A stretch of 64,000 nt of DNA from a virus (taxonomy: Duplodnaviria > Caudoviricetes): the IMG/VR virus record IMGVR_UViG_3300028887_000080, positions 32,001 through 96,000 of that record; one strand, given 5' to 3'. The notes beneath the pieces are model-generated. The model saw nothing but the letters and a program-made list of their open reading frames with translations, ran no database searches and was not told the origin of the DNA. Position numbers and translations under genes: made by a program. Of this stretch, positions 3,974-25,542 are shown piece after piece (position 1 is the first letter of the stretch; every line of letters starts with the position of its first letter).

Positions 3974-5794
3974 ATGTACAATATGGCTATCAATGAAAGT
4001 CAGGTTGTTGCTACTTGGGGACAGCACATTAAGGAATCCCTCGGTATCACTGACGAATCAAAACTCCAATGGATGTCGAAATATGCTTATCTTCACGATT
4101 TGCACGACAAGAAGATGATTGCGGAGTCTGTTGACGGACACGCACACCTCAACCCGAATATGAACATCGGCGGTATGGGCGCCATCAATTTCCCTGGTGC
4201 TGCCACCAACAACACCTATGACCGTTCACTCGCAGGTTCAGGTGACAATGTGTACAGCGTTCTTCCTTTGGCACTCCAAGTCGCTGCACAGACCATCGCT
4301 CTTGACTTGGTTCCTGTGGTTCCGATGCAAGGTCCTCACGGTCTGCTCCAATACCTTGACTATGTGTATGAAGGCGGTCGTCTGAACAATATGGGTGGAA
4401 GCGAATACACCTCTCCGTTGTATAACGGCAAACCTGAAAACTTCGCTTCTCCTTATATGATTAAGGCAAACATCACCGCTATGGACGGTGCTGGTACCGA
4501 CGCTGAAAAATTCATTTTCCGTCCGAACTCAACCTATCACTTCAAAGGCAACGATGATTATGAACTGACCTACATCTATCCTAACCGTATTGACGGTAAA
4601 CCGTTGTTCCGCGTGATTGAAAAATCACACTATGCAGGTCAGAAGATGGTCGGTGGAGAAAACGCTTCAACTCCGATTTACGTTCTCTTCGACAATCTTA
4701 TGTCAGACGGTTCCAACAAGACCACTCTCGTCTGCGATGAGTACATTGACAAAGACAATGTTAAGCACACTGACTTTGAAATGACCATCACAGCCGCCAA
4801 CGGTATTGAAAACGTCCGTGCATTTGAAGACCACGTCACTTCATTCAGCGGTGAAGGTTTCCTGAAGAAAACCGTCACAAGCAACAATCCTTACACCCGT
4901 GAAATGGGCGAGGCAACCCCAGGTCGTAAAATCGGTCTCAAGTCCTACACTTTGGACATCAAGGCAATGACCCTGAAAGTTGACTCCGCTATCACCCGTG
5001 AGCAGGTTCAAGACCTCAAGCAGTTCGGTATCGACGCTATTTCCCAAGCAGAAGCTGCACTCGTGAACGAACTCACACAGGGCATCAACAAAATCATCCT
5101 TGAAAAGATGTTCAACCTTGGTGCTCTCAATGCAGTTCAACTTCAAGAAGTTGAAGGTCGCAACCTTATCTCCGCTTGGTTCGTGAATGGTGAACCCGCT
5201 TCCACTACTGACAAAACCACTAACATTTGGTTGGGTGACAAATACAACAAAGAAACAGGCGAACTTGAAGGTAAATATGTTGCCGAAAACATTCCTTACA
5301 CCAACGTCACAGGCGGCGGTGAAGTGATGGGCACCATCCAACGTCGTATTATGACCAAAATCATCGCTGCTTCCAACGTGATTGCAGTCCGTGGTCGTAG
5401 AGGCGCAGGTACCTTCGCAGTCTGCTCCGGCACCATCGGTACCGCTCTCCAAGATTGCGCAGGTTTTATGCCTTATCCGCTTTCTAACACCATCTCCGCT
5501 AACGGCAACAGTCTGTATCCGATTGGCGCACTTGCTGGCATCAGCATCTACGTCGACCCGAATATGGCATTCAACGATATGCGCGTTGTGGTCGGTCGCA
5601 AGGGTAAAGAGAACGAACCAGGCATCGTGTTCTGCCCTTACCTTATGGCAGACAAAGTCGAAACTACAAGCGAGTTCACGATGGCACCTGTCATCTCCCT
5701 CCAATCTCGTTTCGCTTGTGTTGAGGCAGGTATCTACCCGCAGACGCAGTACTACACTTTCAGTATCAAACTCGACGGTGTAAGTCTTGTCTAA
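3974..5794 (+). CDS. Major capsid protein (T4 gp23-like)
   Basis: DLVPVVPMQGPHG, TREQVQDLKQ.GIDA..E..LVNEL..INK.I, RGRRGAGTF, G.LAG.SIYVDP, GIVFCPY, TMAP...SRF. Confidence 0.95.
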   Translation: MYNMAINESQVVATWGQHIKESLGITDESKLQWMSKYAYLHDLHDKKMIAESVDGHAHLNPNMNIGGMGAINFPGAATNNTYDRSLAGSGDNVYSVLPLALQVAAQTIALDLVPVVPMQGPHGLLQYLDYVYEGGRLNNMGGSEYTSPLYNGKPENFASPYMIKANITAMDGAGTDAEKFIFRPNSTYHFKGNDDYELTYIYPNRIDGKPLFRVIEKSHYAGQKMVGGENASTPIYVLFDNLMSDGSNKTTLVCDEYIDKDNVKHTDFEMTITAANGIENVRAFEDHVTSFSGEGFLKKTVTSNNPYTREMGEATPGRKIGLKSYTLDIKAMTLKVDSAITREQVQDLKQFGIDAISQAEAALVNELTQGINKIILEKMFNLGALNAVQLQEVEGRNLISAWFVNGEPASTTDKTTNIWLGDKYNKETGELEGKYVAENIPYTNVTGGGEVMGTIQRRIMTKIIAASNVIAVRGRRGAGTFAVCSGTIGTALQDCAGFMPYPLSNTISANGNSLYPIGALAGISIYVDPNMAFNDMRVVVGRKGKENEPGIVFCPYLMADKVETTSEFTMAPVISLQSRFACVEAGIYPQTQYYTFSIKLDGVSLV

Positions 5795-13957: not shown

Positions 13958-14006
13958 TTTGAAACAAAAAAGGGGAGCACATTGTGCCCCCTTTTTTGTT
14001 TCAAAA
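13958..14006. terminator. Bidirectional terminator between convergent units
   Basis: ttttgaaacaaaaaaggggagcac-att-gtgccccctttttttgtttcaaaa inverted repeat. Confidence 0.75.
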
Positions 14007-14130
14007 AATCCAAATTGGCAGATAAGCAGAAATCGCCGCTTTTACGGCATTTTATCTTTTTTATGTACACAGATACCATTTTTTGAACATAGTGTCCAAA
14101 ACAGGCGAAAACACGCCTAAAATTAAAAAT

Positions 14131-14643
14131 CTATACCCAAGTTATCTTTTTGTATTCTCCGTCTTCGTAGTAACCGAACGAAAAGCACATCGGGGTTAGG
14201 AAAACTGGTTCTGTGATGATGTTCTTTTTGTATTTGTCCGCATACCCCTTGTTCATATATGCGATTGTGATATGGGGTTTGTAGGTCGTGAACTCCGTGT
14301 GGAGGGTGTAGTTCGCCTTTATCGCGGAGTTTGTCGTATGAAGCGCTTGGCATACCACGCCGCATTTCAGGACGTCGTAGTTGTCGTTGCTGAACACGCT
14401 CACGTCTGAAAGCATTGTCTTGTAGTCGTTGAGAGGAAGCAGGTGCTTTTTCAACTGTTCAAGGTTGACGTCGTTGTCGAGACAGGGAGCGAGCGTGACG
14501 TGCGTCTCGGTTTCAAGTCCATAGACGAACGGTGAATCTGGGTCGCTCGGTTTGTACAGTTCATAGTCCTTGATGCTGTTTTGGATTCCCTTTATGTAGT
14601 CAGGTGTTTGGAAGTCCACCATCAAAAATGCGTATTTGTCCAT
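14131..14643 (-). CDS. 2H phosphoesterase (Acb1/gp57B-like or RNA 2',3'-cyclic phosphodiesterase)
   Basis: Two HxT motifs: THVTL and PHITI; 170 aa; located at the end of the tRNA operon. Confidence 0.8.
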   Translation of the reverse strand: MDKYAFLMVDFQTPDYIKGIQNSIKDYELYKPSDPDSPFVYGLETETHVTLAPCLDNDVNLEQLKKHLLPLNDYKTMLSDVSVFSNDNYDVLKCGVVCQALHTTNSAIKANYTLHTEFTTYKPHITIAYMNKGYADKYKKNIITEPVFLTPMCFSFGYYEDGEYKKITWV

Positions 14644-14695
14644 ATCTGTTTTTTTTATTATTGTCGGTTTGTATTTATAAACCGCTGCTTGTTAG

Positions 14696-14768
<73 letters not shown>

Positions 14769-14769
14769 T

Positions 14770-15069
14770 TTACACGTCCTTTGACATAAGGACGCCTATT
14801 TTTCCTTCCGTGAAAAGTCTTGCCTGTTCGAGCGTGCAAAAGATTGCGGGTCGTTCGTTGAACTCATTGTCTATGCAGATTGCGACTCTCGGTTCGGACG
14901 GTTCCTCCACATCCTCAAACCAACCGCTTCCGTTCATACAGACCTCGCTTTCATCATCGACCTCATATACGACATAGCGTTTTGCCGTTGAAATTTCAAT
15001 GCTTCCGTCAATGGCGGTTCCGAAAATATAGTTCACGCTTTCTTCTTTGATAATGTATTTGCTTTCCAT
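14770..15069 (-). CDS. Hypothetical protein within the tRNA operon
   Basis: 99-aa ORF with A-rich leader. Confidence 0.6.
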   Translation of the reverse strand: MESKYIIKEESVNYIFGTAIDGSIEISTAKRYVVYEVDDESEVCMNGSGWFEDVEEPSEPRVAICIDNEFNERPAIFCTLEQARLFTEGKIGVLMSKDV

Positions 15070-15095
15070 ATTCTTGATTTTTGTTTTTTAATTTG

Positions 15096-15166
15096 TTGTC
15101 GGTCAGAGGGTCGAACTCCGATTAGCGGAACCAGAATCCGCTGTGCTGCCATTACACCAACCGACA
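15096..15166 (-). tRNA. tRNA-Gln(CTG)
   Basis: gcgga-TT CTG GT-tccgc. Confidence 0.9.
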
Positions 15167-15168
15167 TT

Positions 15169-15369
15169 ACAAGACCATTTGAGACAATGCCGCCAACTCT
15201 TCCACGTCGTTTCCGATACGCTTAAACAAGGGGTTACATCAATGCTCACCCCCCAACGGACAGTACGTCCGCTGTATCCGACCCGTATCTCAAATCTTGG
15301 GGTGACGTCACTTCCCCGTGAGGACACGTTGTTCTCGGCATAGTCGTCATTGCCCACTTTGGTCATTGT
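15169..15369 (-). ncRNA. Putative ~200-nt structured RNA between tRNA-Gly and tRNA-Gln
   Basis: Ends pair (acaagacca / tggtcattgt, one bulge); internal atttgaga/tctcaaat and cggac/gtccg helices. Confidence 0.5.
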
Positions 15370-15370
15370 G

Positions 15371-15442
15371 AGCGGTGGACGGGATTTGAACCCGCAACCC
15401 CGACCTTGGCAAGGTCGTATTCTGCCGTTGAACTACCACCGC
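15371..15442 (-). tRNA. tRNA-Gly(GCC)
   Basis: cgacc-TT GCC AA-ggtcg. Confidence 0.93.
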
Positions 15443-15588
15443 ATCGTCTCTTTTCATCAGACTTCCTTGCAATATCCGAATCTTGTACTACCGGGCATCA
15501 ATAAGCACATCCGTCCTATTGACATTTTGAGACACACCCGTTTAATTGTTGTCTATCGTGAAACAATCTAAAGACCGCCTATGTGTTT

Positions 15589-15661
15589 GCAAGACCATAG
15601 GATTTGAACCTCCATTTCATCATTGGACGGATGATATTCTACCAAATTGAACTATCGCCGC
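15589..15661 (-). pseudogene. Degenerate tRNA-like element (loop CC GTC CA)
   Basis: D-loop agttcaatttggtagaa and GGTTCAAATCC present, but acceptor and T stems are mismatched. Confidence 0.55.
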
Positions 15662-15688
15662 CGGACGAAATTTTGGACATTTCGTTTG

Positions 15689-15759
15689 CAGGAGTGGAAG
15701 GACTCGAACCTCCGTCTACGGTTTTGGAGACCGTCGTTCTACCACTGAACCACACTCCT
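15689..15759 (-). tRNA. tRNA-Trp(CCA)
   Basis: acggt-CT CCA AA-accgt. Confidence 0.93.
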
Positions 15760-15785
15760 ATTCACCGTTGAACTACAGACTCAAG

Positions 15786-15868
15786 TGCGGACGGTGAGAG
15801 TCGAACTCACACGGGGATACCCCCACCACCCCCTCAAGGTGGCGCGCCTGCCATTTCGCCACGTCCGC
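15786..15868 (-). tRNA. tRNA-Leu(GAG)
   Basis: ccacc-TT GAG GG-ggtgg; long variable arm. Confidence 0.92.
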
Positions 15869-15879
15869 ATAATCTCATA

Positions 15880-16046
15880 GATGCAACCAATCACTTTCCG
15901 CTTTGGCGGTGTATTCGGACTACGGGTCGATTACCTCCGACGTCCTAATTACGTCCATTCTCTCTAACGGGCACTCGATGTCCATCAGTGAAGTTCTATT
16001 CGGGGCGTCGTCACGTTTCCCGCTACGGGTCTATATTGGTTGCATC
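15880..16046 (-). ncRNA. Putative ~167-nt structured RNA
   Basis: Perfect 12-bp closing stem gatgcaaccaat / attggttgcatc. Confidence 0.55.
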
Positions 16047-16187
16047 CGTTTAAGAAATTCGGCAAACGAGTTTTGTATCGTCATCTTAAACTAAATGTTG
16101 ACACAACCGCATCGCATTCTGCGGTCGCTTTGAAACGCCAACAATGTGCCCACAACGAAGGGTCACAAATCTTGCCGTATCCCATTG

Positions 16188-16261
16188 TACCGGCAGGTGG
16201 ATTTGAACCACCGTCTCCGCCTTATGAGGGCGGCGCAAGAAACCGACTCCGCTATGCCGAT
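16188..16261 (-). tRNA. tRNA-Met/Ile2(CAT)
   Basis: ccgcc-CT CAT AA-ggcgg. Confidence 0.88.
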
Positions 16262-16266
16262 GTTTT

Positions 16267-16432
16267 GAAAACAAAAACCAACAGGTGTTTTGATTAAACT
16301 ATGTATTCCTTTTTCTTGCTTATCGGGTCTCGATGACCCGTGGAACCCACCTCTGATTTGCCTTGCAGCGTCAGTGATTCTCTGTTGTCAATGCACGGAA
16401 CAGTTATGCCCTATCGCAATGTTTTTGTTTCC
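16267..16432 (-). ncRNA. Putative ~165-nt structured RNA
   Basis: Closing stem aaacaaaaac / gtttttgttt; internal cgggtc/gacccg hairpin. Confidence 0.4.
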
Positions 16433-16435
16433 AAG

Positions 16436-16524
16436 CGGAGGGGGTAGGATTTGAACCCACGGAACCCTTGCGGGTTCGGCGGTTTTCAAGACCGCTGCAA
16501 TAAACCAGACTCTGCCACCCCTCC
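16436..16524 (-). tRNA. tRNA-Ser(TGA)
   Basis: gcggt-CT TGA AA-accgc; long variable arm. Confidence 0.93.
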
Positions 16525-16587
16525 AAAAATACTCCTGCTTTAAGGCAAGTCAGGTGAACCTTTGATATATCATTGATATATCGCTTG

Positions 16588-16661
16588 TGGAGCGTGGGGG
16601 AGTCGAACCCCCGACCCCCTGCGTGCAAAGCAGGTGTTCTGGCCAACTGAACTAACGCCCC
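16588..16661 (-). tRNA. tRNA-Ala(TGC)
   Basis: cctgc-TT TGC AC-gcagg; G3:U70. Confidence 0.94.
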
Positions 16662-16774
16662 GTTTACAACCTTTACAGACCGTATGGTTACACACGGGAA
16701 GTATAACCGAACCATACGTCGGTGTGCGCTGAACCCGTATCCGCAAACGGCAGCAACCGTTCCTAATCGGACAT

Positions 16775-17160
16775 CACGGACTTTACTTTTTTATGCACCT
16801 CGCCTTTACAGCGGCACGCACACCATTTCACGCAAACCATAAAGATTGTGGACAGACTCTTTGGTGTTTATCGCTTTGTCTCCGACTTGCATCGTCGCAC
16901 TTGCGGTGTGCGAGACCGTGCCTTCTTTTTTATATATGTCATCCCTTCGGGCATTGGGCAGAAAGGAAAACATAATATATTTGAGAATTTCTCTCTCACG
17001 CGCTTGCGTGGTTCCTGTCGGAATGCTCCTTTCCAATACATTGCAGGGAACACGTCCCCGCGACCGACAGTGGTCGCCCATATATCATTTCAGGGCATTG
17101 CTCCGACAACGGGATGAAAAAGCAAGCGAATCTTATGTTCGCCAAAAAATAAAGTCCGTG
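16775..17160 (-). ncRNA. Putative ~386-nt large structured RNA
   Basis: 11-bp perfect closing stem cacggacttta / taaagtccgtg; several GNRA-capped hairpins on the minus strand. Confidence 0.6.
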
Positions 17161-17166
17161 TCGGAA

Positions 17167-17244
17167 TGGTAGCGCGGACGGGACTCGAACCCGCAATCTC
17201 CACCTTGAAAGGGTGGCGACTTAAACCAGTTTGTCCACCGCGCC
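17167..17244 (-). tRNA. tRNA-Glu(TTC), CCA encoded
   Basis: ccacc-CT TTC AA-ggtgg. Confidence 0.93.
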
Positions 17245-17397
17245 GTTCAGTGCGGTATAACCCGCACGTCCAACTGTTTGTTCATCTTGGAAAGTTGTCA
17301 ACCTGCACGACTTCCTTTTTTGAGTTTTCCGCGCACTGCCGAGTTGTACGGACGAAACTTGAGAATGAAAAAAAAATAGTCAAATAAAAAAACATTG

Positions 17398-17471
17398 GGT
17401 GGAGAGTGGGACTCGAACCCACGACCTACGGAACCACAATCCGCCGTTCTGCCAACTGAACTATCCCCACC
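17398..17471 (-). tRNA. tRNA-His(GTG) with encoded G-1
   Basis: gcgga-TT GTG GT-tccgt; G-1:C73. Confidence 0.93.
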
Positions 17472-17475
17472 AAAT

Positions 17476-17898
17476 AAGTGATTGATGTGTTGTTACACCA
17501 AATTCTCCGACGGCGGTTTCACGGACATCTCAACGGGCGACTAACTTGGCAACTACGCCCTGCGCCGAACTTTTCTTCATAGTTCGGACACCCCCGCTTT
17601 CGCGGTGAAGATTAAGAGCAATCTCCTCTCGTACTGTCGCTCCTTATCCGTCGTACCTGTCTCCGACACCGAATTGCACTTGCGCCACATCAAGGAGACA
17701 CCCGTGTTTCAACGGGATTTTAATTGAGGACAACCGTGTATTCGTGCTTGTGACTCCGTGAGGTTGCCCATACCGCACCAAGTTCGCTGGTATGGTGTTC
17801 TTGTGACGTAAATCAACTATGCGCATAGTAGTATGTAGTCACTACCTCTTGAAACTCTTTAGAGGATGGACACTATCAGTCCCACCTTTCAATCACTT
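17476..17898 (-). ncRNA. Putative ~423-nt large structured RNA
   Basis: 10-bp perfect closing stem aagtgattga / tcaatcactt filling the Ser-His spacer; many internal hairpins. Confidence 0.65.
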
Positions 17899-17899
17899 G

Positions 17900-17987
17900 C
17901 GGAGAGTGAGGGACTTGAACCCCCGCGCCGTTTTCACGACCTATCTGTTTAGCAAACAGACCCCTTCACCGACTTGGGTAACTCTCC
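17900..17987 (-). tRNA. tRNA-Ser(GCT)
   Basis: tctgt-TT GCT AA-acaga; long variable arm. Confidence 0.92.
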
Positions 17988-17992
17988 AAAAA

Positions 17993-18152
17993 AGCAAAAT
18001 CTTACACAAGACGAGTTGCGCTTTAACTCTCTTGTCCTTCGCTGTGGCGAGACCACGGATTGCTCCGCACTTTTGTTGTTAAACTTCCACAGACCCCATT
18101 CTCATCGGAATCCCAAGCGGAAAAGATTTTATCCGCACCCTTTGATTTTGCT
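17993..18152 (-). ncRNA. Putative ~160-nt structured RNA
   Basis: 9-bp closing stem agcaaaatc / gattttgct; internal gcgga/tccgc and acaaga/tcttgt helices. Confidence 0.5.
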
Positions 18153-18155
18153 ATG

Positions 18156-18299
18156 CTGTTATGGCGGGACTCGAACCCGCAGTACCGCAGTAATCCTGAA
18201 CCGCGGGCAACCTTTACGTCTCACTCCCAAGACTTCTAATCTGACCGACAATGGTGACGGTTTCAAGCGAGGGTTTGCCAATTCCCCTTCACATAACAG
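18156..18299 (-). ncRNA. Expanded tRNA-like RNA (~144 nt) with insertions in the anticodon and variable regions
   Basis: Acceptor ctgttatg/cataacag, Leu-like D-loop aattggcaaa, perfect T arm gcgggTTCGAGTcccgc; ~85 nt between the D and T arms. Confidence 0.7.
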
Positions 18300-18318
18300 T
18301 TGTGTGTTGATGAATTTG

Positions 18319-18397
18319 TAGGGGAGGTGGGACTCGAACCCACATACACCAATTACAGAATTAACGACTGTATATAAGACAGGACTGATACACCCCT
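18319..18397 (-). tRNA. Atypical tRNA-Ile(TAT)-like with truncated D arm and long variable region
   Basis: aggggtg/ctcccct acceptor; ctgt-CT TAT AT-acag; intact T arm. Confidence 0.7.
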
Positions 18398-18485
18398 ATG
18401 CGATGCCGAGAATCCCTGTCATAAATTTGCCCGCCAACGGCGGACACCCATCAACAGATGGGGCAAGGCATTGCTTGTGAAAGAG

Positions 18486-18559
18486 TGCTCCCAGCAGGAC
18501 TTGAACCTACGACCCCCTGATTATGAGTCAGGCGCACTAACCAACTGTGCTATGGGAGC
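18486..18559 (-). tRNA. tRNA-Met/Ile2(CAT)
   Basis: cctga-CT CAT AA-tcagg. Confidence 0.9.
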
Positions 18560-18565
18560 ATAGAA

Positions 18566-18927
18566 ACAAGGCGGTTTTTTTAGCGAGTACAAATTAACGG
18601 TTTGTTGCTTGAAAATAGTGGTTTGCGGAATCCGCCTTTATATGTTCAGTATTATGGAAAAAGAGAAAATTCAAAAAAACAAGGCAGGGGTTGTTAGCGA
18701 GTACAAATTAAAAGTTTGTTGCTTGGATAGGTTTGCTGCACCTGCCTTTATTATTCAGTATTATGGAAAGAGAAGATTCAAAAAAAAAACAAGGGAGATT
18801 TGTTGCGTTTCAAAGTTACAGTTTGATGCCTACAATGTTTGCTGAACCTCCCTTTAGATACAAGGTGATTTTTTTGCTTGGTTGAATTTGGATTTCACTT
18901 TGCAATGCGTTTGCTGCAATCACCTTT
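18566..18927 (-). ncRNA. Tandem array of four small covarying hairpin RNAs carrying anticodon stem-loop mimics (18566-18639, 18679-18749, 18789-18855, 18860-18927)
   Basis: Minus-strand consensus AAAG-stem-nnCAGCAAA...ASL...stem'-CTTGT; stems differ in sequence but keep pairing. Confidence 0.75.
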
Positions 18928-18939
18928 TTGTTTTAATTG

Positions 18940-19012
18940 TATCCCCGCAGGGACTCGAACCCCAATCTTGAGTTCCGTGGACTCACATTCTAATCCATTG
19001 AACTACGGGGAC
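18940..19012 (-). tRNA. tRNA-Arg(ACG)
   Basis: tgagt-CC ACG GA-actca (C33). Confidence 0.88.
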
Positions 19013-19117
19013 TTATATGGGCGGGGTTATCGTCATACCTTACTATAGTTATACGCCGAATATGATGTTATCCCCTGCGTAAACTTGTTCCAATGTACGG
19101 TTGGAGTTTACGTTTAG

Positions 19118-19190
19118 TGGGAAGGGGTGGAGTCGAACCACCATCATCGGATTTTCAGTCCGCTGCATAGACCTGCTTTGCTACCTTCCC
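19118..19190 (-). tRNA. tRNA-Phe(GAA)
   Basis: cgga-CT GAA AA-tccg. Confidence 0.9.
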
Positions 19191-19269
19191 GTTTTGCGGA
19201 TGTGTGTCTCGCGACAGGCGTCCGCAACTGATAAATATAAAAAAACACAAATAAAATGATTATCACAAG

Positions 19270-19340
19270 AGCGGCATATCAGAATCGAACTGACATATCC
19301 AGATTGGAAGTCTGGCGCACTGCCTTTGTGCTAATGCCGC
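19270..19340 (-). tRNA. tRNA-Gly(TCC)
   Basis: ccaga-CT TCC AA-tctgg. Confidence 0.9.
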
Positions 19341-19363
19341 GTGAGGCGCGCGTCCGCGCCCGT

Positions 19364-19427
19364 ACAAGAGGCGTGATGAAATGACTTATCCCAAAAGTTT
19401 TTCTTGTTTTTTGCCGAATGCCTCTTT
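19364..19427 (-). ncRNA. Fifth copy of the CAGCAA hairpin RNA family (ASL loop TT GGG AT)
   Basis: acaagaggc...ttgccgaatgcctcttt on the + strand. Confidence 0.65.
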
Positions 19428-19432
19428 TTTTG

Positions 19433-19546
19433 CCGCGGAGATTGGAGTCGAACCAATGTCAGGAGTTCCCAATAGCGAAAATTGCTGATAGGTTCTTTGA
19501 ACAAGAATCATTTGCTACTCCCGTTCTGCCGTTAAACTACTCCGCG
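19433..19546 (-). tRNA. tRNA-like gene with ~43-nt anticodon-loop insertion (Pro TGG if excised)
   Basis: cgcggag/ctccgcg acceptor, normal D and T arms, ggagt/actcc stem enclosing a 50-nt loop that ends TTGGGA. Confidence 0.7.
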
Positions 19547-19551
19547 ATGTT

Positions 19552-19885
19552 CCGACATAATGTGGTGTGAACCGCTGAAACCACAATCGCACTTTCGCTG
19601 TCGGGGCGAACTCCGCTTTGTTTCTCCGGAGCGGAAAACCATCACTGCATTCGTTTTGATTAACAATATACAGCATCACGGTATCGCACCGTGCTCTCTC
19701 CGCAGGGTCGCGGGCGTGTCACTTGACACCTATGTTGCAGTGATTGTATGTCCTCCCGCCCGTGCCTTTGCACATTATCTGCGGATTTGTATGGACACGT
19801 TTCAAGGTTGTGCTGAAACCCGACGCCATTCTAAATGTTATTTTAAGGAAGCGTTTAACTCTCCTAAAACTATGTGCGGCATAGT
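19552..19885 (-). ncRNA. Putative ~330-nt pseudoknotted RNA
   Basis: Helix 19641-49/19736-44 crosses helices 19699-705/19779-85 and 19710-16/19757-63. Confidence 0.55.
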
Positions 19886-19890
19886 CTTTG

Positions 19891-19961
19891 TTGAACTTGG
19901 AGGACTCGAACCTCCACCAACAGAACCAAAATCTGTTGTGCTGCCATTACACCAAAGTTCA
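19891..19961 (-). tRNA. tRNA-Gln(TTG)
   Basis: acaga-TT TTG GT-tctgt. Confidence 0.93.
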
Positions 19962-19966
19962 ATATG

Positions 19967-20038
19967 TGGGTCGGGCGGGACTCGAACCCGCAGTCCCCTG
20001 ATTAAGAGTCAGGTGCAGTGCCATTTTGCTACCGACCC
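19967..20038 (-). tRNA. tRNA-Lys(CTT)
   Basis: cctga-CT CTT AA-tcagg. Confidence 0.93.
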
Positions 20039-20042
20039 GATG

Positions 20043-20198
20043 TGGGCAGGGAAGGATTTGAACCTCCGAACCCGAATGGGAGCGGATTGGCAATGTGGGA
20101 AATTACGAATTTCCGAAACTTCATTATTCACATTGCGGTTTAACGTGTAACCTTCACGTAGTACAGTCCGCCGCGTTTAACCACTTCGCTACCTGCCC
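20043..20198 (-). tRNA. tRNA-Tyr(GTA) interrupted by a 73-nt intron-like insertion (20089-20161)
   Basis: gcgga-CT GTA [73 nt] AA-tccgc; otherwise canonical Tyr body with variable arm. Confidence 0.85.
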
Positions 20199-20210
20199 TT
20201 ATAGAATTTG

Positions 20211-20281
20211 TGGACATTACGGGAATCGAACCCGCTTTCACGCCTCCCGTTGCAGTGGGACACGCTACTGCCGTTATGCCC
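20211..20281 (-). tRNA. Atypical tRNA-Cys(GCA)-like with shortened D arm
   Basis: tccc-a CT GCA A c-ggga; intact T arm; imperfect acceptor. Confidence 0.6.
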
Positions 20282-20292
20282 TTGTTGTTATG

Positions 20293-20364
20293 TGTCACGG
20301 ATGAGACTCGAACTCACAATCCCCTGATTAAAAGTCAGGTGCATCGCCATTATGCTACCGTGGC
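20293..20364 (-). tRNA. tRNA-Lys(TTT)
   Basis: cctga-CT TTT AA-tcagg. Confidence 0.92.
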
Positions 20365-21189
20365 ATTTTTTATTTTTTGTATTATATTTTTAATGAATCG
20401 TTCTTTACATTCTTTTGGCATTTTTTTATACCGAGACCATCTTATTCTAAATAAACACGTCCATCCATTTTTTTGTAATACTTCAGTTCGTTTTTTGTCG
20501 TGTTTAACAATACGCTTGTCCAAATAATGTTGTTCCCCATCAACTTCAAAATATGTTTTTGTTATTGGAAATGCAAAATCCAAAAAATACCCAAATTGAT
20601 AATAATTTTGTTCATATTCAATATGTTCATCATTCAAAATTTGCTTAAAATACTTTTCACAATAACTATCACCGTGTGAATGATGATTTAATACATAAGG
20701 AACTTTATTCGGGTGCTTTTTCAAATACTTTTTTCTAATATCAGAAAGGTGCTGTTTTTCTTGTTCAGTATGCTTTATTCCTTTTTGTGGACTTTTTAAT
20801 TCACCGTTTTCATAACGGAGTTTAAGTGAAATTGCTGCTTGTTTAACACGCTCATCTGTCTCTTTTGTTAAACCTTTGTTCCACGGACGCTTACCCATCA
20901 TACCATTACGATATACTCTATTTTTGTTTTGTGGACACTTACATTCGTGTGCTTTAAGTGATTTTACACTATAACATTGTTTTCCACAGTATTTACAAAC
21001 AAGACTTTCATCTTTGTCGTAATGATAATTTTCATTACTATGTTTTTTTGAATATACCGCATAACCACAAACGTGATTTTCCAAAGGTTTTCTATTTGGA
21101 TTCAACTTACAAGTTCTTTCGTGAATACCCAATGCACAAGAACGTTTTAACATTTTGTTACAATACCTACAAATATACATCATTTCCAA
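20350..21189 (-). CDS. Free-standing putative homing endonuclease (C2H2-like Zn fingers + NUMOD-like segment + DUF559/Vsr-like nuclease)
   Basis: CRYC..HERTC, CKYCGK..HECKC, PWNKGLTKETD, KHTEQEK, YFLDFA..YFEVDGEQHY..D..R...L...GW..FRIRW; much lower GC than neighbours. Confidence 0.75.
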   Translation of the reverse strand: MEMMYICRYCNKMLKRSCALGIHERTCKLNPNRKPLENHVCGYAVYSKKHSNENYHYDKDESLVCKYCGKQCYSVKSLKAHECKCPQNKNRVYRNGMMGKRPWNKGLTKETDERVKQAAISLKLRYENGELKSPQKGIKHTEQEKQHLSDIRKKYLKKHPNKVPYVLNHHSHGDSYCEKYFKQILNDEHIEYEQNYYQFGYFLDFAFPITKTYFEVDGEQHYLDKRIVKHDKKRTEVLQKNGWTCLFRIRWSRYKKMPKECKERFIKNIIQKIKNATVA

Positions 21190-21236
21190 TATATTATTAT
21201 ATTTATAAGTACGCTAACATTGAGTTATCATCATTG

Positions 21237-21309
21237 TAGCGGGAGCAGGACTCGAACCTGCGATTACGAGATTATGAGACTCGTGAGATGACCACTTCTC
21301 CATCCCGCT
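21237..21309 (-). tRNA. tRNA-Met(CAT), initiator-like body
   Basis: agcgggatggagaagtgg 5' end; CT CAT AA loop. Confidence 0.85.
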
Positions 21310-21315
21310 ATGTTT

Positions 21316-21386
21316 ACAAGGTGGCATAACCATTAACCTTAAATTAAATAAATACTATGGAAACTGTTTTGCTGAAAACCACCTTT
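21316..21386 (-). ncRNA. Sixth copy of the CAGCAA hairpin RNA family
   Basis: acaaggtgg...ttttgctgaaaaccaccttt. Confidence 0.65.
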
Positions 21387-21390
21387 CTTG

Positions 21391-21464
21391 CTGGGATGGA
21401 GGGACTTGAACCCCCGACTTACGGATTAACAGTCCGCCGTTCTGACCAACTGAACTACATCCCA
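21391..21464 (-). tRNA. tRNA-Asn(GTT)
   Basis: gcgga-CT GTT AA-tccgt. Confidence 0.93.
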
Positions 21465-21470
21465 TTGTTG

Positions 21471-21545
21471 TGGGCAAGGCAGGACTTGAACCTGCGACCC
21501 CCGCCTTATCAGAGCGGTGTTCTGACCAAACTGAACTACTTGCCC
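21471..21545 (-). tRNA. tRNA-Ile(GAT)
   Basis: ccgct-CT GAT AA-ggcgg. Confidence 0.93.
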
Positions 21546-21623
21546 GTGAAAATTGAGTTGGTTTATGGTCTAACTCAAGACTAACGACCGCTCTTATTAT
21601 GAAAAACAATAATATGGTTTTTG

Positions 21624-21707
21624 TGGTCGGGGCGGGAATTGAACCCGCACGTCCTTTCGGACAAAGGTTTTTGAGACCTTCGCGTCTACCAATTCCGCCA
21701 CCCGACC
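21624..21707 (-). tRNA. tRNA-Leu(CAA)
   Basis: aaggt-CT CAA AA-acctt. Confidence 0.93.
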
Positions 21708-21750
21708 GCAGGCGTCAATGCGGCAAAGAGAGCGTAAAAAGGATTTATAG

Positions 21751-21831
21751 TGCGTCAGAAAGGACTCGAACCTTCACGCCTCTCGGCATCGGTTCCTAAA
21801 ACCGACGTGTCTGCCATTCCACCACAGACGC
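21751..21831 (-). tRNA. tRNA-Leu(TAG)
   Basis: tcggt-TT TAG GA-accga. Confidence 0.92.
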
Positions 21832-21836
21832 ATTTT

Positions 21837-21891
21837 ACAAGATACTTAAAATTTCCTATAATTTTTTTAATAGATTGCTGAATGTATCTTT
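21837..21891 (-). ncRNA. Seventh copy of the CAGCAA hairpin RNA family
   Basis: acaagatac...ttgctgaatgtatcttt. Confidence 0.65.
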
Positions 21892-21899
21892 ATTTCTCG

Positions 21900-21977
21900 C
21901 GTACCGTACGGGACTCGAACCCGCATTTACCTCCGTCACGATGACAGCGTGCTTACCGCTATTACACCAAACGATAC
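21900..21977 (-). tRNA. Atypical tRNA with ambiguous anticodon arm (Asp GTC or Arg TCG)
   Basis: gtatcgt/acggtac acceptor, G73, intact T arm; cacgCTGTCATcgtg versus ctgtCATCGTGacgg folds. Confidence 0.6.
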
Positions 21978-22053
21978 TGACGGGAGATTGAACGCTAAAG
22001 AATGCGGTATCGCGATTACCGCGAAGCGTCTTGTACAACCTTTGTCCCGTTTG

Positions 22054-22125
22054 CGGTCACACTGGGAATCGAACCCAAATCTCGTGATAGACAGTCACGC
22101 ATCTTAACCTTTAGACGATGCGACC
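22054..22125 (-). tRNA. tRNA-Asp(GTC)
   Basis: cgtga-CT GTC TA-tcacg. Confidence 0.92.
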
Positions 22126-22135
22126 GTTTGTCGGT

Positions 22136-22538
22136 TTATGTCCGCGCCTCTCCACGACGCTTCCAATCTTTTGCATAATTTCAGCGATTTATACACGCAG
22201 TTCCGACTACTTTGCGTGTGCCCCGTAAAAATGTGGAACATACATCTACGGACATAACTCCCCGCAGCGGAGCAGGCGTTTTTTCACGCAACGCCCCTTG
22301 CGTACCATTACGGCGGTATTGGAGACGCCGCAAGGAATTTGACCGTTTTTATGGAGACCGCCACCTGACAGGCGGTTTGTCCAATTTCTTTTTAGAATGC
22401 GGATTTCCGATAACCTTGCATTCCATTTTAAGCGTTTTTAACTTGTCAGGATTTTTGGCGCGTGTTACGCCGTTTTTGGCGCGTGTTACGCCCACGCCTT
22501 ACGACCGCGACGCGAACTTATAAGAACGCACCGGGGGA
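22136..22538 (-). ncRNA. Two adjacent putative structured RNAs (~22136-22257 and ~22259-22538)
   Basis: ttatgtccg/cggacataa and tccccg/cggggga closing stems; internal cctgaca/tgtcagg; 20-nt tandem duplication at 22452-22492. Confidence 0.45.
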
Positions 22539-22542
22539 TTTG

Positions 22543-22615
22543 AGCCGCAGGGGAGACTTGAACTCCCAACTTTCGGTTTACAAAACCGATACTCTACCAG
22601 TTGAGTTACAGCGGC
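22543..22615 (-). tRNA. tRNA-Thr(TGT)
   Basis: tcggt-TT TGT AA-accga. Confidence 0.93.
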
Positions 22616-22726
22616 ATTTGAAGGGGTGGATGCTCACTGATGGTGGGACGCCGCTGAATTTTGTGCGTATATGCCCGACCTGTTCGTTTTACATACACCC
22701 CTTTTAGGTGTTTGCTTTCTGCCAAT

Positions 22727-22782
22727 ATGTCAAAGAACTTTCGTTCGTCGGCGGCGTTAAGACCGCCTGCATTTGAATATAA
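22727..22782 (-). promoter_or_regulatory. tRNA-operon leader: TTATATTCAA promoter motif, hairpin and boxA-like antiterminator AGTTCTTTGACAT
   Basis: + strand atgtcaaagaact (22727-39), ggcgg..ccgcc hairpin, ttgaatataa (22773-82). Confidence 0.65.
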
Positions 22783-23158
22783 TAAAAAAAATCAACTTTT
22801 TTACAGATATTGAAAAAAATCTCAAAAAAAAATCGGAGGTTGCTTTCACATACCTCCGATTCTATTTGGTTTCAGTGGGGTATGGTCATTCTTCCTTTGA
22901 GTATTCATTATCTTGTTTCTGTCCGAAACTTGCACCATTGCCGTCAAAAATGCCGCAATACGCCTGTTTCGGGGATATGTGCTTCCCTGTTTTTGGCGTG
23001 CGGTTGTCGGTTGCGATGTTTGTTTTGGAAAGAATCATTGAGTTCTTTTTATTATTTTTTCGGAATATATTTATACAAGTGTTTTTGCACTGTTTCCAAT
23101 GGGTGTGAAAATGGTGCAAAACCTCTGAAAATGAATATATCGCAGATATATCTGACAT

Positions 23159-23190
23159 AAAAAAAGCGTGTGGGTGCACACACGCTTTTT
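23159..23190. terminator. Terminator at the end of the vWA operon
   Basis: aaaaagcgtgtg-ggtg-cacacacgcttttt. Confidence 0.75.
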
Positions 23191-23211
23191 GTCTTGTTTT
23201 GGAAGTTTTTG

Positions 23212-25542
23212 TTACTTTTCAGTGTCGTTGAGTTCTATGTAGCATTTTTTCAGTTGGTCGTAATCCGGTTCAATGCACCAAGACAGGTATCCAAGTAGTT
23301 GTTCTTTGATGTCGTGCTCGTATATGACAAACATAATTTTGTTTTTCATAGGCAGTAGTTTCTTCAAAGGAGTGACGTCCCAAAAGCCGCCGTCAGTCAA
23401 AAACAACCATACTGAATTTCTGTCGCTCTGTCTTGTTTTCAAGATATAGTCAACACAGTCTTTCACTTCGGTTCCACCACCTGCGTCGTTGTTCGTTGCC
23501 ATTTCGATGACAAGTTTCATTGCTGCCTCCTTGTTTTTCTTCACCTCATCGGCAACCATATATATACCTGATTTGAGGTCTATTGTGTCTGCGAACGGGA
23601 TGAGTGTGATTCCGCTGTATTGGAGTTTTGTACAGCAATTCACCAAAGTGTCGGCAAAGAGTTCAACAACGTCAAGGTTGACAGACCCTGATGTATCCAC
23701 AAACACGTTGATGTTTTGTGGGGCGGCGTCTCCCTTCGGGTGATATGGGCGCATAAGGTCGTGTGCAAGCACTCGCTTGTCACCCCATCTTGTACGGGTG
23801 TTGTCTTTGAGTTTGTGTTTTCTGTTGGCATAGATTGTGTTTGCTTCAAGGAATATCTTTACGATTTCATCCCACATTTTATGGATAGTGGTATCGTTCA
23901 TCTTTATCCTTCTGCAAATTTTCCCGATTGCTGATTTGGGTTTTTGTCTGATGATGTTGTTTCGCAATTCTTTCACCTCTTCCCTTGAAATGACGTTCTT
24001 TGAAGCGACTTCGGTGAGTGTTTCTTCAATTTCCCTGTCGCTGAAACCGCTGTTTTTCAAAGCGCCTTTCAGTTTCTCCTTAACTTCGGACTGCTTTACG
24101 ATTTTTCCGACTGCTGTCGGTTTGAATTTATAATCACCCCTTATTTGCGGACGAAGTTCCTTGCGCTTTTGGTTTTTGTTTTTTCTTGCGGCAGACCTGT
24201 TTATTTTTCCGCCGCCGCCTGCACCAAGTCCTTTTTCACCGTAATTCTTTGAATTTCCACCGCTTCCGCCGTTTGTGCGTTTGCCGTCACGATTGCCTTC
24301 TTTGTTTTGTTGACTGCCTTGACTTCCCTGTTGGTCGCTTTGCTGACTGCCTTGCTGACCGCCTTGTTGGTTGTCTTGCTGACCGCCTTGCTGACTGCCT
24401 TGCTGACTGCCTTGTTGGTTGTTTGAAAAATCACCCATAGCGTTGTCGGCGGAATTTACGGCGTCGTCTGCCGATTGTTGTGCATTTTCATTTTCATCGC
24501 GTGCTTTCTGTGCTTCCCGTCTTGCCTTGTTTACATCGCCGTTTTCAGACGCTTCAAATGCCTTGTCCGCGGCTTCTTGTGCGGCGTTTGCTGCATCCTG
24601 CGCCTTGTCAGCGAGTTCCTGTGTTTTATCGGCGAGTTCCTGTGCCTTGTCCGCTTTGTTTTTTGCATCTTTGTATTTGGGGGAATCTTCGCCGAAACGG
24701 GATTTCGCCTTTCTTGCATTGTCTCTTGCGTCATCGGCAAGTTCCTGTGCGTCGTTTGCCGCGTCCTGTGCGTCGTTTGCCGCGTCCTGTGCTGCGTTGG
24801 CTGCGTTCTGTGCTGCACTTGCGGCATCCTGTGCATTCATTTTTGAAACATCCCTGTTGTCGGAGTCGCTTCCGTATTTTTCAAGGGATTCCTTTGCCGC
24901 GTCCTGTGACATCCAAGATTCCATAGCGGCGTCCTGTGCTGCGTTTTTCGCATCCTGTGCTGCATTCTGCGCGTTCTTCGCTTCTTTTCTTGCAGTTTCG
25001 TCGTCACCGTTTTGTGCGGCGGATTTTGATTTGTTTGCTGCATTCTGCGCAGCGTTTGCTGCGTCCTGTGCTTCTTGTGCTGCTTTTTTTGCATCTTTTG
25101 CCGATTCGTTTGCTTCATCGGCAAGTGCCTTTGCGTCTTTATACTCATCGGAGCTTTCGCCAAATTCAGACTTGATTTCCTCTGCTGTGTTCTGTGCGTT
25201 CTCGGCTGCGTTCTTTGCGGACTGTGCTGCGTTGGATGCCTTGTCAGCATCTTTCTGCGCCCTGTCCGCTGCATTCTGTGCCTCGTTTGCTGCGTCGTCC
25301 GCGTTCATTTCCGAAACATCGGCGTCGTTGACGTCGTTGCTTTCACCCTGACCATTTTGTGGAACGATTGGTTTTTCCTTGTCTGTTTCTGGTTTTGGTT
25401 CGTTGTTTTGGTCTTCGTTGGAACCTCCGCCAAGCAATGCGTTTTGAAGTTCACTCACGGCATCGTCAAACCCCTGTTCGAGACCACTTTCGTATGTCGA
25501 GTATTCTTTTGGTGCAACTGAATTTTCATTTATTATTTTCAT
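23212..25542 (-). CDS. vWA (MIDAS) domain protein with long Ala/Gln-rich coiled coil and QQGS low-complexity linker
   Basis: VFVDTSGSV, GGGT, FLTDGG; ~300-aa A/Q/D/N heptad repeats. Confidence 0.85.
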   Translation of the reverse strand: MKIINENSVAPKEYSTYESGLEQGFDDAVSELQNALLGGGSNEDQNNEPKPETDKEKPIVPQNGQGESNDVNDADVSEMNADDAANEAQNAADRAQKDADKASNAAQSAKNAAENAQNTAEEIKSEFGESSDEYKDAKALADEANESAKDAKKAAQEAQDAANAAQNAANKSKSAAQNGDDETARKEAKNAQNAAQDAKNAAQDAAMESWMSQDAAKESLEKYGSDSDNRDVSKMNAQDAASAAQNAANAAQDAANDAQDAANDAQELADDARDNARKAKSRFGEDSPKYKDAKNKADKAQELADKTQELADKAQDAANAAQEAADKAFEASENGDVNKARREAQKARDENENAQQSADDAVNSADNAMGDFSNNQQGSQQGSQQGGQQDNQQGGQQGSQQSDQQGSQGSQQNKEGNRDGKRTNGGSGGNSKNYGEKGLGAGGGGKINRSAARKNKNQKRKELRPQIRGDYKFKPTAVGKIVKQSEVKEKLKGALKNSGFSDREIEETLTEVASKNVISREEVKELRNNIIRQKPKSAIGKICRRIKMNDTTIHKMWDEIVKIFLEANTIYANRKHKLKDNTRTRWGDKRVLAHDLMRPYHPKGDAAPQNINVFVDTSGSVNLDVVELFADTLVNCCTKLQYSGITLIPFADTIDLKSGIYMVADEVKKNKEAAMKLVIEMATNNDAGGGTEVKDCVDYILKTRQSDRNSVWLFLTDGGFWDVTPLKKLLPMKNKIMFVIYEHDIKEQLLGYLSWCIEPDYDQLKKCYIELNDTEK

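Follow-up and report, generated by a model that had tools for sequence, protein, structure and literature searches.

Phage tRNA clusters have been known since the 1970s to hold a couple of orphan stable RNAs, namely, RNAC and RNAD of T4. T4 produces both of these RNAs (species 1 and species 2, respectively) during infection, and what they do is not known (PMC3014915, PMC9697503). In the T4 genome, rnaD and rnaC lie 1 and 6 nucleotides (nt) after tRNA-Arg and each other, within a cluster that also contains a homing endonuclease gene. Here, we analyze a tRNA array carried on a 64,000-nt stretch of phage DNA (referred to as the window), which corresponds to bases 32001 to 96000 of the 124-kb IMG/VR record IMGVR_UViG_3300028887_000080 (Caudoviricetes). 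The array occupies the region from 14.7 to 22.8 kb of the window on the minus strand and contains a total of 27 to 28 tRNAs, and the spacers between them are populated by structured non-tRNA modules, several of which are conserved in related phages. As in T4, the predicted non-tRNA RNA genes belong to a phage tRNA cluster and share the strand of its tRNAs, and here their borders are 0 to 11 nt from tRNAs or from other modules. A sequence relationship between the two sets is not to be expected. T4 has two such RNAs, the accumulation of which has been shown, whereas this array has at least 15, which reach 440 nt, are mostly not tRNA-like, stand behind a boxA-like leader, and are known from sequence and from library contigs. 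By analogy, we consider RNAC and RNAD the best match among described systems and hence the closest precedent.

Other systems resemble the array in part. GOLLD and ROOL are large, intricately folded phage noncoding RNAs (ncRNAs) that adjoin tRNAs, and the largest conserved module of the array, D (~440 nt, 21 covarying pairs), appears to be of a like kind; D is smaller, however, and matches no Rfam model, so it is not a member of either family. Indeed, neither GOLLD (RF01998) nor ROOL (RF03087) was listed by cmscan of the window at gathering thresholds or of positions 14000 to 23600 at an E value of ≤10. Theta ribozymes are small structured RNAs that start no more than a few nt from phage tRNA 3′ ends; the gut phages concerned have CCA-less tRNAs, with RNA-end-healing enzymes nearby (PMC10879173). 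[quoted passage not shown] We rejected an HDV-like or theta ribozyme as an identity for the modules: a scan for the nested double pseudoknot, using a descriptor that approximates the published one, returned 3 topology matches compared to 0 to 4 in shuffled sequences, none of which starts at a tRNA 3′ end, and no HDV-like Rfam family matched positions 14000 to 23600 at an E value of ≤10. Finally, rrn operons combine a boxA leader with 5′/3′ processing stems that flank the 16S and 23S rRNAs, and their spacers contain tRNAs. The array likewise has a conserved boxA-like box and long-range helices that enclose its units, but the enclosed units are not rRNAs and the helices are shorter.

Closed modules in the spacers of the array

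The 124-kb record is rated 39% complete by CheckV, so the genome is that of a jumbo phage of roughly 300 kb; the DNA and RNA sequencing runs that contain the stretch come from bovine or other gut metagenomes. ARAGORN called 26 tRNAs between 14695 and 22615 on the minus strand, to which Rfam adds 20043-20198, a tRNA-Tyr that carries an insert of 73 nt, and 18319-18397, a borderline case. An earlier reading made without database searches (the sequence-only reading) had noted that most long inter-tRNA spacers begin and end with complementary sequences within a few nt of the flanking tRNAs. It listed 11 such elements and proposed that tRNA processing releases about ten distinct stable ncRNAs from one boxA-antiterminated transcript.

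All 11 of the claimed end pairs proved to be real, with 8 to 17 contiguous or near-contiguous complementary bases each (e.g., 12 bp for 16046/15880, 17 bp for 17160/16775, and 10 bp for 17898/17476). The strength of closure was taken as the duplex energy of an element's first 25 nt against its last 25 nt. Own-end duplexes ranged from −12.5 to −23.6 kcal/mol (mean, −17.7), compared to −8.4 ± 2.8 kcal/mol for 110 mismatched 5′/3′ combinations and −7.65 ± 3.3 kcal/mol for 300 length-matched random segments of the window. Ten of the elements fell within the lowest 3% of the random segments, and the remaining one (17993/18152) fell at 8.7%. The elements are also hairpin-rich, as had been claimed, with minimum free energy (MFE) z-scores that are negative throughout (−1.3 to −5.2).

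The claimed proximity to tRNAs was borne out in part. Both ends lie within a few nt of tRNAs for 15169/15369, 16269/16430, 17476/17898, 18400/18474, and 21980/22050. The other elements do so at one end only; for the leader element (22621/22703), the sole neighboring tRNA is at the downstream end. At positions 16046, 18152, 22257, and 22259, the immediate neighbor is another module (B, E, or each other), and about 113 nt of further conserved RNA lie beyond 16775. When boundaries were set by tRNA calls alone, 3 of 21 spacers were clearly closed (15167-15369, 16262-16434, and 21978-22052) and 3 more were borderline (Mann-Whitney p = 0.026); the sequence-only reading had placed some element boundaries inside spacers. 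Those internal boundaries are not arbitrary, because at 16046 and 18152 they meet the ends of B and E, two modules whose definition came independently, from homology, and because two closed modules stand back to back at 22257/22259. The spacers are therefore tilings of closed modules. Short AT-rich spacers in the same array, such as 21546-21622 and 21832-21898, contain no such modules. The earlier count of about ten ncRNAs was too low: the number of modules is nearer 15 to 20, including tRNA-like RNAs, the insert-bearing tRNA-Tyr, and a repeated module that had not been listed.

Conserved families and their recovery in RNA libraries

A megablast search of GenBank phages with the array matched only a tRNA-Ser fragment, and single-protein scans of viral contigs with the neighboring 776-aa and 966-aa proteins found no relatives. 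Relatives were reached by using the 2H phosphoesterase encoded directly downstream of the array as an anchor, which yielded 73 homologues, many of them beside tRNA arrays and some on contigs of 300 to 527 kb. In all, ∼160 loci of rumen and gut jumbo-phage contigs were gathered for comparison. By protein identity, the closest relatives are L003 (84%), L008 (64%), L091 (63%), L090 (61%), L092 (60%), and L094 and L171 (56 to 57%), all of which have large tRNA arrays with heavily reshuffled gene order. Homologues of the modules were sought with nhmmer, using one query per spacer.

These searches bear out the proposal of discrete structured RNAs on the tRNA strand: three listed elements (A, C, and D) and two modules that had not been listed (B and E) are conserved, with compensatory changes well above controls (Table 1). 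Module A has homologues in five other phage lineages. Its RNAalifold structure comprises 52 pairs in eight helices, with 93% of cells paired, and 14 pairs covary, compared to 5.7 ± 1.7 in shuffled alignments (0 of 500 reach the observed value) and at most 3 with slid partners. Because several invariant G-U pairs are compatible with the tRNA strand only, the structure was placed on that strand. Module A retains 82% identity across five phages, including many invariant unpaired stretches. It begins 2 to 4 nt past a tRNA that differs from phage to phage (Ser, Pro, Gly, or Leu), but its immediate downstream neighbor is usually one and the same tRNA-Met. This tRNA-Met is in turn followed by B, and the arrangement recurs, in some relatives with intervening elements such as another tRNA. 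As judged by comparison of these loci, A-type modules are RNA genes in tRNA slots. A covariance model of A found nothing beyond the nhmmer members.

The other four families show the same pattern. Relative to column shuffles, 13 of 44 pairs covary in B (2.5 expected), with the closing helix included, as do 17 of 48 in C (5.75 expected) and 11 of 23 in E (1.3 expected). Module E has seven strong members, the window's included, at five loci (77 to 158 bits). In D, compensatory changes were seen at 21 of the 56 pairs predicted. Covariation extends to the closing helices of A, B, C (its inner helix), and E. Long invariant single-stranded motifs mark the conserved core of D and are found likewise in B and E, and beyond D a further conserved hairpin region extends as far as tRNA-Ala (16662). 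In L008, D begins directly after a tRNA. The sequence-only reading had named lack of conservation or covariation as grounds for abandoning it; A to E covary, while seven of its 11 elements have no detectable homologue. Its statement that the spacers lack credible open reading frames (ORFs) holds for A to D, whose homologues keep ORFs in neither frame nor position. For example, an antisense ORF that recurs in A has a frameshift in the window and a break in L094. A coding reading of A to D was rejected because their ORFs are not conserved among homologues.

Contigs from four RNA-library studies coincide with several of the modules. A contig from a size-fractionated library (15168-15368) matches C to within one base. 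Two studies yielded contigs (16727-17175 and 16728-17158) that both end at a conserved CCGU/ACGG hairpin closing the 3′ part of D. The contig at 15865-16185 corresponds to exactly one inter-tRNA spacer (tRNA-Met to tRNA-Leu), and another spans 15883-16175. Further contigs cover 17441-17838, 17504-17881, 18001-18201, 19362-19913, 22121-22460, and 22074-22481, and module F is covered by contigs of all four studies. The contigs scarcely reach the endonuclease ORF (∼20340-21200) or 22923-23200, a gap to which we attach no weight because missing cover in such data is not evidence.

In the cmscan check that the sequence-only reading had suggested, Rfam gathering thresholds returned tRNAs only, and a scan of 14000-23600 at an E value of ≤10 returned nothing credible on the modules. 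The Y RNAs of bacteria and phages, YrlA among them, are closed by a 5′/3′ stem; YrlA carries a tRNA-like domain, and E shares an acceptor-like stem, a D arm, and a T arm; T4 RNAC, too, has paired ends and a T arm, like E. YrlA (RF02553) was rejected as an identity, given that its best scores (26.1, 23.3, and 19.2 bits; threshold, 69) all fall on true tRNAs and none on the listed modules. Of the partner genes of Y RNAs, neither Ro60/Rsr (TROVE, PF05731) nor DUF2828 (PF11443) was found in the 124-kb record, which represents ∼39% of the genome. We also rejected a transfer-messenger RNA (RF00023) called by ARAGORN at 20210-20592: built on module T, the call encloses a complete tRNA-Lys and part of an ORF, and its Rfam score of 16.4 bits lies below the threshold (47 bits). 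Searches of the literature turned up no account of these RNAs.

The seven listed elements without homologues are single copy in the 124-kb record, and their standing rests on folding, end pairing, and RNA-library contigs, the last of which cover, among others, 15880-16046 and 22136-22257. For the 71-nt module between the two tRNA-Asp genes, closure extends to the whole spacer (−18.4 kcal/mol, within the lowest 2% of controls). Of the 10 strain variants in 22259-22538, 7 map to loops of the predicted fold, 1 leaves a pair intact, and 2 disrupt a pair; over 22136-22538, 10 of the 15 variants in an RNA-library contig fall in predicted loops. This loop bias lends weak support to the folds at 22136-22538. 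The leader module aligns with L091 over its first part only. Within the 423-nt module, the minus strand at 17624-17635 carries AGUACGAGAGGA on a 6-bp stem; these 12 nt are identical to the core of the 23S rRNA sarcin-ricin loop. The 12-mer occurs once here and nowhere in 2.1 Mb of related loci, so the match may be due to chance.

Table 1. Modules, leader boxes, and genes of the array region, with end-duplex energies, MFE z-scores, and loci that contain homologues
Feature	Positions	Strand	Description	End duplex (kcal/mol)	MFE z-score	Homologues
A RNA	16269-16430	minus	162 nt; between tRNA-Ser(UGA) and tRNA-Met; 11-bp closing helix; search span 16262-16434			L091, L008, L094, L090, L171
B RNA	16047-16186	minus	∼125 nt; directly after tRNA-Met; not in the sequence-only list		−2.5 to −3.2	L090, L094, L092, L004
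C RNA	15169-15369	minus	201 nt; fills the whole tRNA-Gly(GCC)-tRNA-Gln(CUG) spacer; search span 15167-15369			L091, L003
D RNA	16727-17166	minus	∼440 nt; after tRNA-Glu; contains the listed 16775/17160 stem; search span 16662-17166		−4.2 to −5.2	L003, L091, L008
E module	18153-18305	minus	tRNA-like; 7-bp acceptor-like closing stem, D arm, T arm; ∼75 nt replacing the anticodon region			
F module	19565-19889	minus	∼325 nt, structured; directly after tRNA-Gln(UUG); search span 19341-19889			L091 (E = 7.5e−37), L004, L090
G module	∼15443-15600	minus	In spacer 15443-15687; 4 covarying pairs			L093 (two)
T module	20208-20281	minus	74 nt, tRNA-like; T arm; 6-bp acceptor-like stem			L090, L004, L168 (two or three copies)
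Closed module	15880-16046	minus	167 nt; between B and tRNA-Leu(GAG); 12-bp perfect terminal helix; orphan	−23.6	−4.4	
Closed module	17476-17898	minus	423 nt; between tRNA-Ser(GCU) and tRNA-His; orphan	−14.5		
Closed module	17993-18152	minus	160 nt; between E and tRNA-Ser(GCU); orphan; weakest end duplex of the 11	−12.5	−2.4	
Closed module	18400-18474	minus	75 nt; between tRNA-Met and borderline tRNA 18319-18397; orphan	−14.3	−2.0	
Closed module	21980-22050	minus	71 nt; flanked at 2 nt on either side by tRNA-Asp genes; orphan	−15.8	−3.0	
Closed module	22136-22257	minus	122 nt; abuts the 22259-22538 module by 1 nt; ends 10 nt before tRNA-Asp; orphan	−19.5		
Closed module	22259-22538	minus	280 nt; starts 3 nt after tRNA-Thr; orphan	−17.2	−2.75	
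Closed leader module	22621-22703	minus	Ends 5 nt before tRNA-Thr	−18.2	−4.1	
tRNA-shaped RNA	19468-19560	minus	∼55-nt insert in the anticodon loop			
Degenerate tRNA	15597-15654	minus	Rfam tRNA, 19 bits; same spacer as G			
tRNA-Tyr(GUA)	20043-20198	minus	Rfam tRNA, 47 bits; 73-nt structured insert (20089-20161) directly after the anticodon			
R modules, four in tandem	18861-18927, 18790-18855, 18680-18749, 18567-18639	minus	Last copy ends 7 nt before tRNA-Met			
R module, copy 5	21317-21386	minus	AAAGG..CAGCAAA..CCUUG; ends 7 nt before tRNA-Met			
Promoter-like box	22771-22785	minus	TTATTATATTCAAAT; head of the array, after the terminator hairpin (∼22830-22862) of the upstream gene			
boxA-like box	22728-22738	minus	GTTCTTTGACA; leader			
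DUF559/Vsr-like endonuclease ORF	20350-21189	minus	Pfam PF04480; inside the array			
99-aa ORF	14770-15069		Inside the array; counted as a real ORF			
2H phosphoesterase (2′-5′ RNA ligase superfamily)	14131-14643	minus	PF13563 below cutoff; PHROG 755; directly downstream of the array			

Weighing the RNA operon reading

The promoter-like box at the head of the array is nearly invariant in the window, L091, and L168 (one base differs in L168), and the terminator stem of the upstream gene covaries among the same three phages. The array has one copy of this box, and a further copy stands at a second RNA locus, beyond the window. The boxA-like box that follows it is conserved in these phages as GTTCTTTGACA(TATTGG), at a varying distance from the promoter-like box. 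In the form GTTCTTTGA(A/C)A, it is conserved in the three leaders and found also in at least five other arrays (L090, L092, L094, L010, and L097). It resembles rrn boxA, which makes it a putative NusB/NusE site, and from this resemblance we infer that the array transcript may be antiterminated. The endonuclease ORF (box at 21207) and the 2H phosphoesterase gene each have a TATAAATA box of their own, which, together with the leader boxes, would fit one specialized transcription unit for the array. A sigma-70 promoter scan was uninformative (15 sites compared to 14 expected).

Our preferred reading, to which we assign a probability of roughly 60%, is that the array from 14.7 to 22.8 kb is an RNA operon of a rumen jumbo phage, processed through its tRNAs into many self-folding RNAs. 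The description of the array as a tRNA-punctuated operon of structured RNAs is supported for A to E and plausible for the rest; the single transcript, the processing enzymes, and the stability and function of the modules are what we infer beyond it. Its layout is that of a tRNA cluster blended with an rRNA operon: a conserved promoter-like box and a boxA-like box are followed by the 27 to 28 tRNAs alternating with at least 15 non-tRNA modules of 70 to 440 nt. Each module folds on itself, most of them closed by their own 5′/3′ helix 0 to 11 nt from the neighboring tRNA or module. Cleavage by RNase P at tRNA 5′ ends and by RNase Z or exonucleases at the CCA-less 3′ ends would then release the modules. 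A terminal helix that leaves almost no single-stranded tail could protect a released module from exonucleases and keep it from interfering with tRNA folding. The released modules, namely, D, the compact multihelix A, B, and C, and the tRNA-like E and T, would be trans-acting structured RNAs. They are probably protein-binding scaffolds, or else decoys in the contest over host translation or RNA-targeting defenses.

The modules could, on the other hand, be cis-acting spacers for processing or insulation, i.e., stems for RNase III or Mini-III or aids to tRNA folding, that are degraded after cleavage. A boxA-like leader with long-range stems around the units does resemble the rrn design described above, the leader boxes are conserved, seven modules lack sequence conservation, and the terminal stems change from one lineage to another but stay in place. 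Loops would not have to be conserved in an insulator, however, and A, B, D, and E keep invariant unpaired motifs. Most of the closing helices, at 8 to 12 bp, also fall below typical RNase III substrates, the AT-rich spacers noted above separate tRNAs without any module, and whole modules were recovered in RNA-library contigs. We therefore regard a purely cis-acting role as unlikely, albeit worth keeping in view.

Descent from tRNAs is a less probable account still. If the modules were decayed, remodeled, or intron-bearing tRNA genes, their end pairing would be a relic of the acceptor stem and the array a burial ground for duplicated tRNAs; E, T, the RNAs at 19468-19560 and 15597-15654, and the insert-bearing tRNA-Tyr are clearly tRNA derived; relatives, moreover, have many tRNAs of 116 to 146 nt. 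Yet A to D and the seven orphans show no T arm, D arm, or Rfam tRNA signal (E value of ≤10), closing helices reach 17 bp and modules 440 nt, and the tRNA-like members are themselves conserved with covariation, which argues against decay. We give very little credence to the remaining possibility, that the modules are miniature inverted-repeat transposable element (MITE)-like mobile DNA or footprints of homing endonucleases or TnpB directed at tRNA arrays, with their ends representing DNA inverted repeats. The ends are indeed perfect inverted repeats of 9 to 17 bp, and the arrays, strongly reshuffled from relative to relative, contain genes for DUF559 endonucleases and TnpB. Against this, the invariant G-U pairs work only in a one-strand RNA, and the order A, tRNA-Met, B recurs in relatives. 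The modules are also single copy in 124 kb, with termini that all differ and that change in orthologues by compensation, preserving pairing rather than sequence, and on these grounds a MITE- or insertion sequence-derived origin was rejected.

Several observations weigh against the RNA operon reading. The RNA data are assembled contigs, from which strand, ends, and abundance are not readable and which may include DNA, so that they attest to presence in RNA libraries and are not proof of stable RNAs; one contig (22645-22868) continues past the putative promoter on its upstream side. D's 17-bp terminal stem, which competes with the conserved CCGU/ACGG hairpin, is absent from L008 and unmatched in the alignment with L091, so that what is conserved is not in every case self-closure. 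For seven of the 11 listed elements, nhmmer and blastn searches of ∼2.1 Mb of related loci, of the remainder of G001 and G002, and of four extra contigs gave no homologue, and these orphans could be rapidly evolving filler that simply happens to fold. Transcription could end within the array at the U-runs that follow some R modules and tRNA-His. In addition, no Ro60/TROVE, RtcB, RNA ligase, or CCA-adding enzyme was found in the 124 kb (∼39% of the genome).

A bolder version of the RNA operon reading, which we hold to be doubtful, is that the array is an RNA factory. In this scenario, tRNA punctuation and an antiterminated leader would yield 15 to 20 stable RNAs, including a new 440-nt ornate RNA, the tRNA-like E and T, and a possible sarcin-ricin-loop mimic (17624-17635), and these would act with the adjacent RNA-end-healing enzyme as decoys or sponges against host nucleases that target tRNA or rRNA. 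If modules do decoy tRNA- or rRNA-targeting defense nucleases, this would add an RNA layer to phage counterdefense. What distinguishes the array is that well over half of its ∼8 kb is non-tRNA structured RNA and that at least five families, one of them as large as the "ornate" RNAs, have been selectively kept across rumen jumbo phages. These are new RNA families for Rfam-style curation, and the array offers a natural example of the tRNA-flanked release that has been engineered for guide-RNA arrays. With modules gained, lost, and reshuffled between close phages, it also provides a comparative system in which the function of such RNAs becomes testable.

Additional modules and neighboring genes

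Several further modules are conserved in fewer loci or are recognizably tRNA-like. In F, the hairpin at 19608-19640 carries two double compensatory changes in a strain variant. Next to F, the tRNA-shaped RNA at 19468-19560 has readable acceptor, D, anticodon-stem, and T arms both in the window and in L091. The tRNA-Tyr lacks its insert in L004, G001/L168, and L094, whereas in L091 it has the same insert, with a compensatory change in one insert hairpin. A group I intron would need more than the 73 nt of this insert. In one RNA-library contig, 20088 is joined to 20162, with only 23 nt on the contig's shorter side; this does not demonstrate splicing, since the contig may derive from an insert-free relative. 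Several tRNAs with inserts, 116 to 146 nt in length, occur in relatives.

The R module is a repeated element of ∼70 nt with invariant AAAGG/CCUUG ends, an invariant CAGCAAA(C), and a small internal hairpin. A pattern search and alignment of 10 copies revealed 3 covarying pairs in its closing helix. Beyond the five copies in the array, R modules occur at L002:1505-1576 (this genome), L091:3720-3785 and 4475-4542, L090:487-544, and L010:2132-2198, and their usual position is 4 to 7 nt upstream of a tRNA. The copy in L002 belongs to the second RNA locus, which lies outside the window and has no tRNA (G000:C1 ∼15960-16310, plus strand, equivalent to L002:1250-1590). There, the same promoter-like box is followed by a boxA-like TTCTTTGAAA, ∼200 nt free of ORFs, an R module, and a run of 11 U.

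Endonuclease-like genes recur in these arrays. DUF559 endonuclease-like ORFs are present in the arrays of L003 (1074-1763) and L004 (3488-4210 and 6243-7472), and a TnpB gene is inserted in the tRNA array of L004. The presence of segB in the T4 tRNA cluster offers a parallel to the endonuclease genes inside the tRNA arrays of this phage group. Downstream of the array, the 2H phosphoesterase of several relatives is followed by a 525- to 557-aa protein with PHA02142/RNA-ligase matches (L004:10714-12387, L006:759-2336, and L170:1437-3014); in this window, no RNA ligase gene adjoins the 2H phosphoesterase. In the relatives, the phosphoesterase and ligase look like a pair for healing and sealing RNA ends beside the tRNA array. 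No suppressor-type tRNA was called in this window. Such tRNAs, with a CUA anticodon (UUA in L168), are found at L091:3349-3417, L008:318-389, L090:6531-6602, L004:8372-8443, L170:714-786, and L168:10079-10149, which hints at stop-codon recoding in parts of the phage group.

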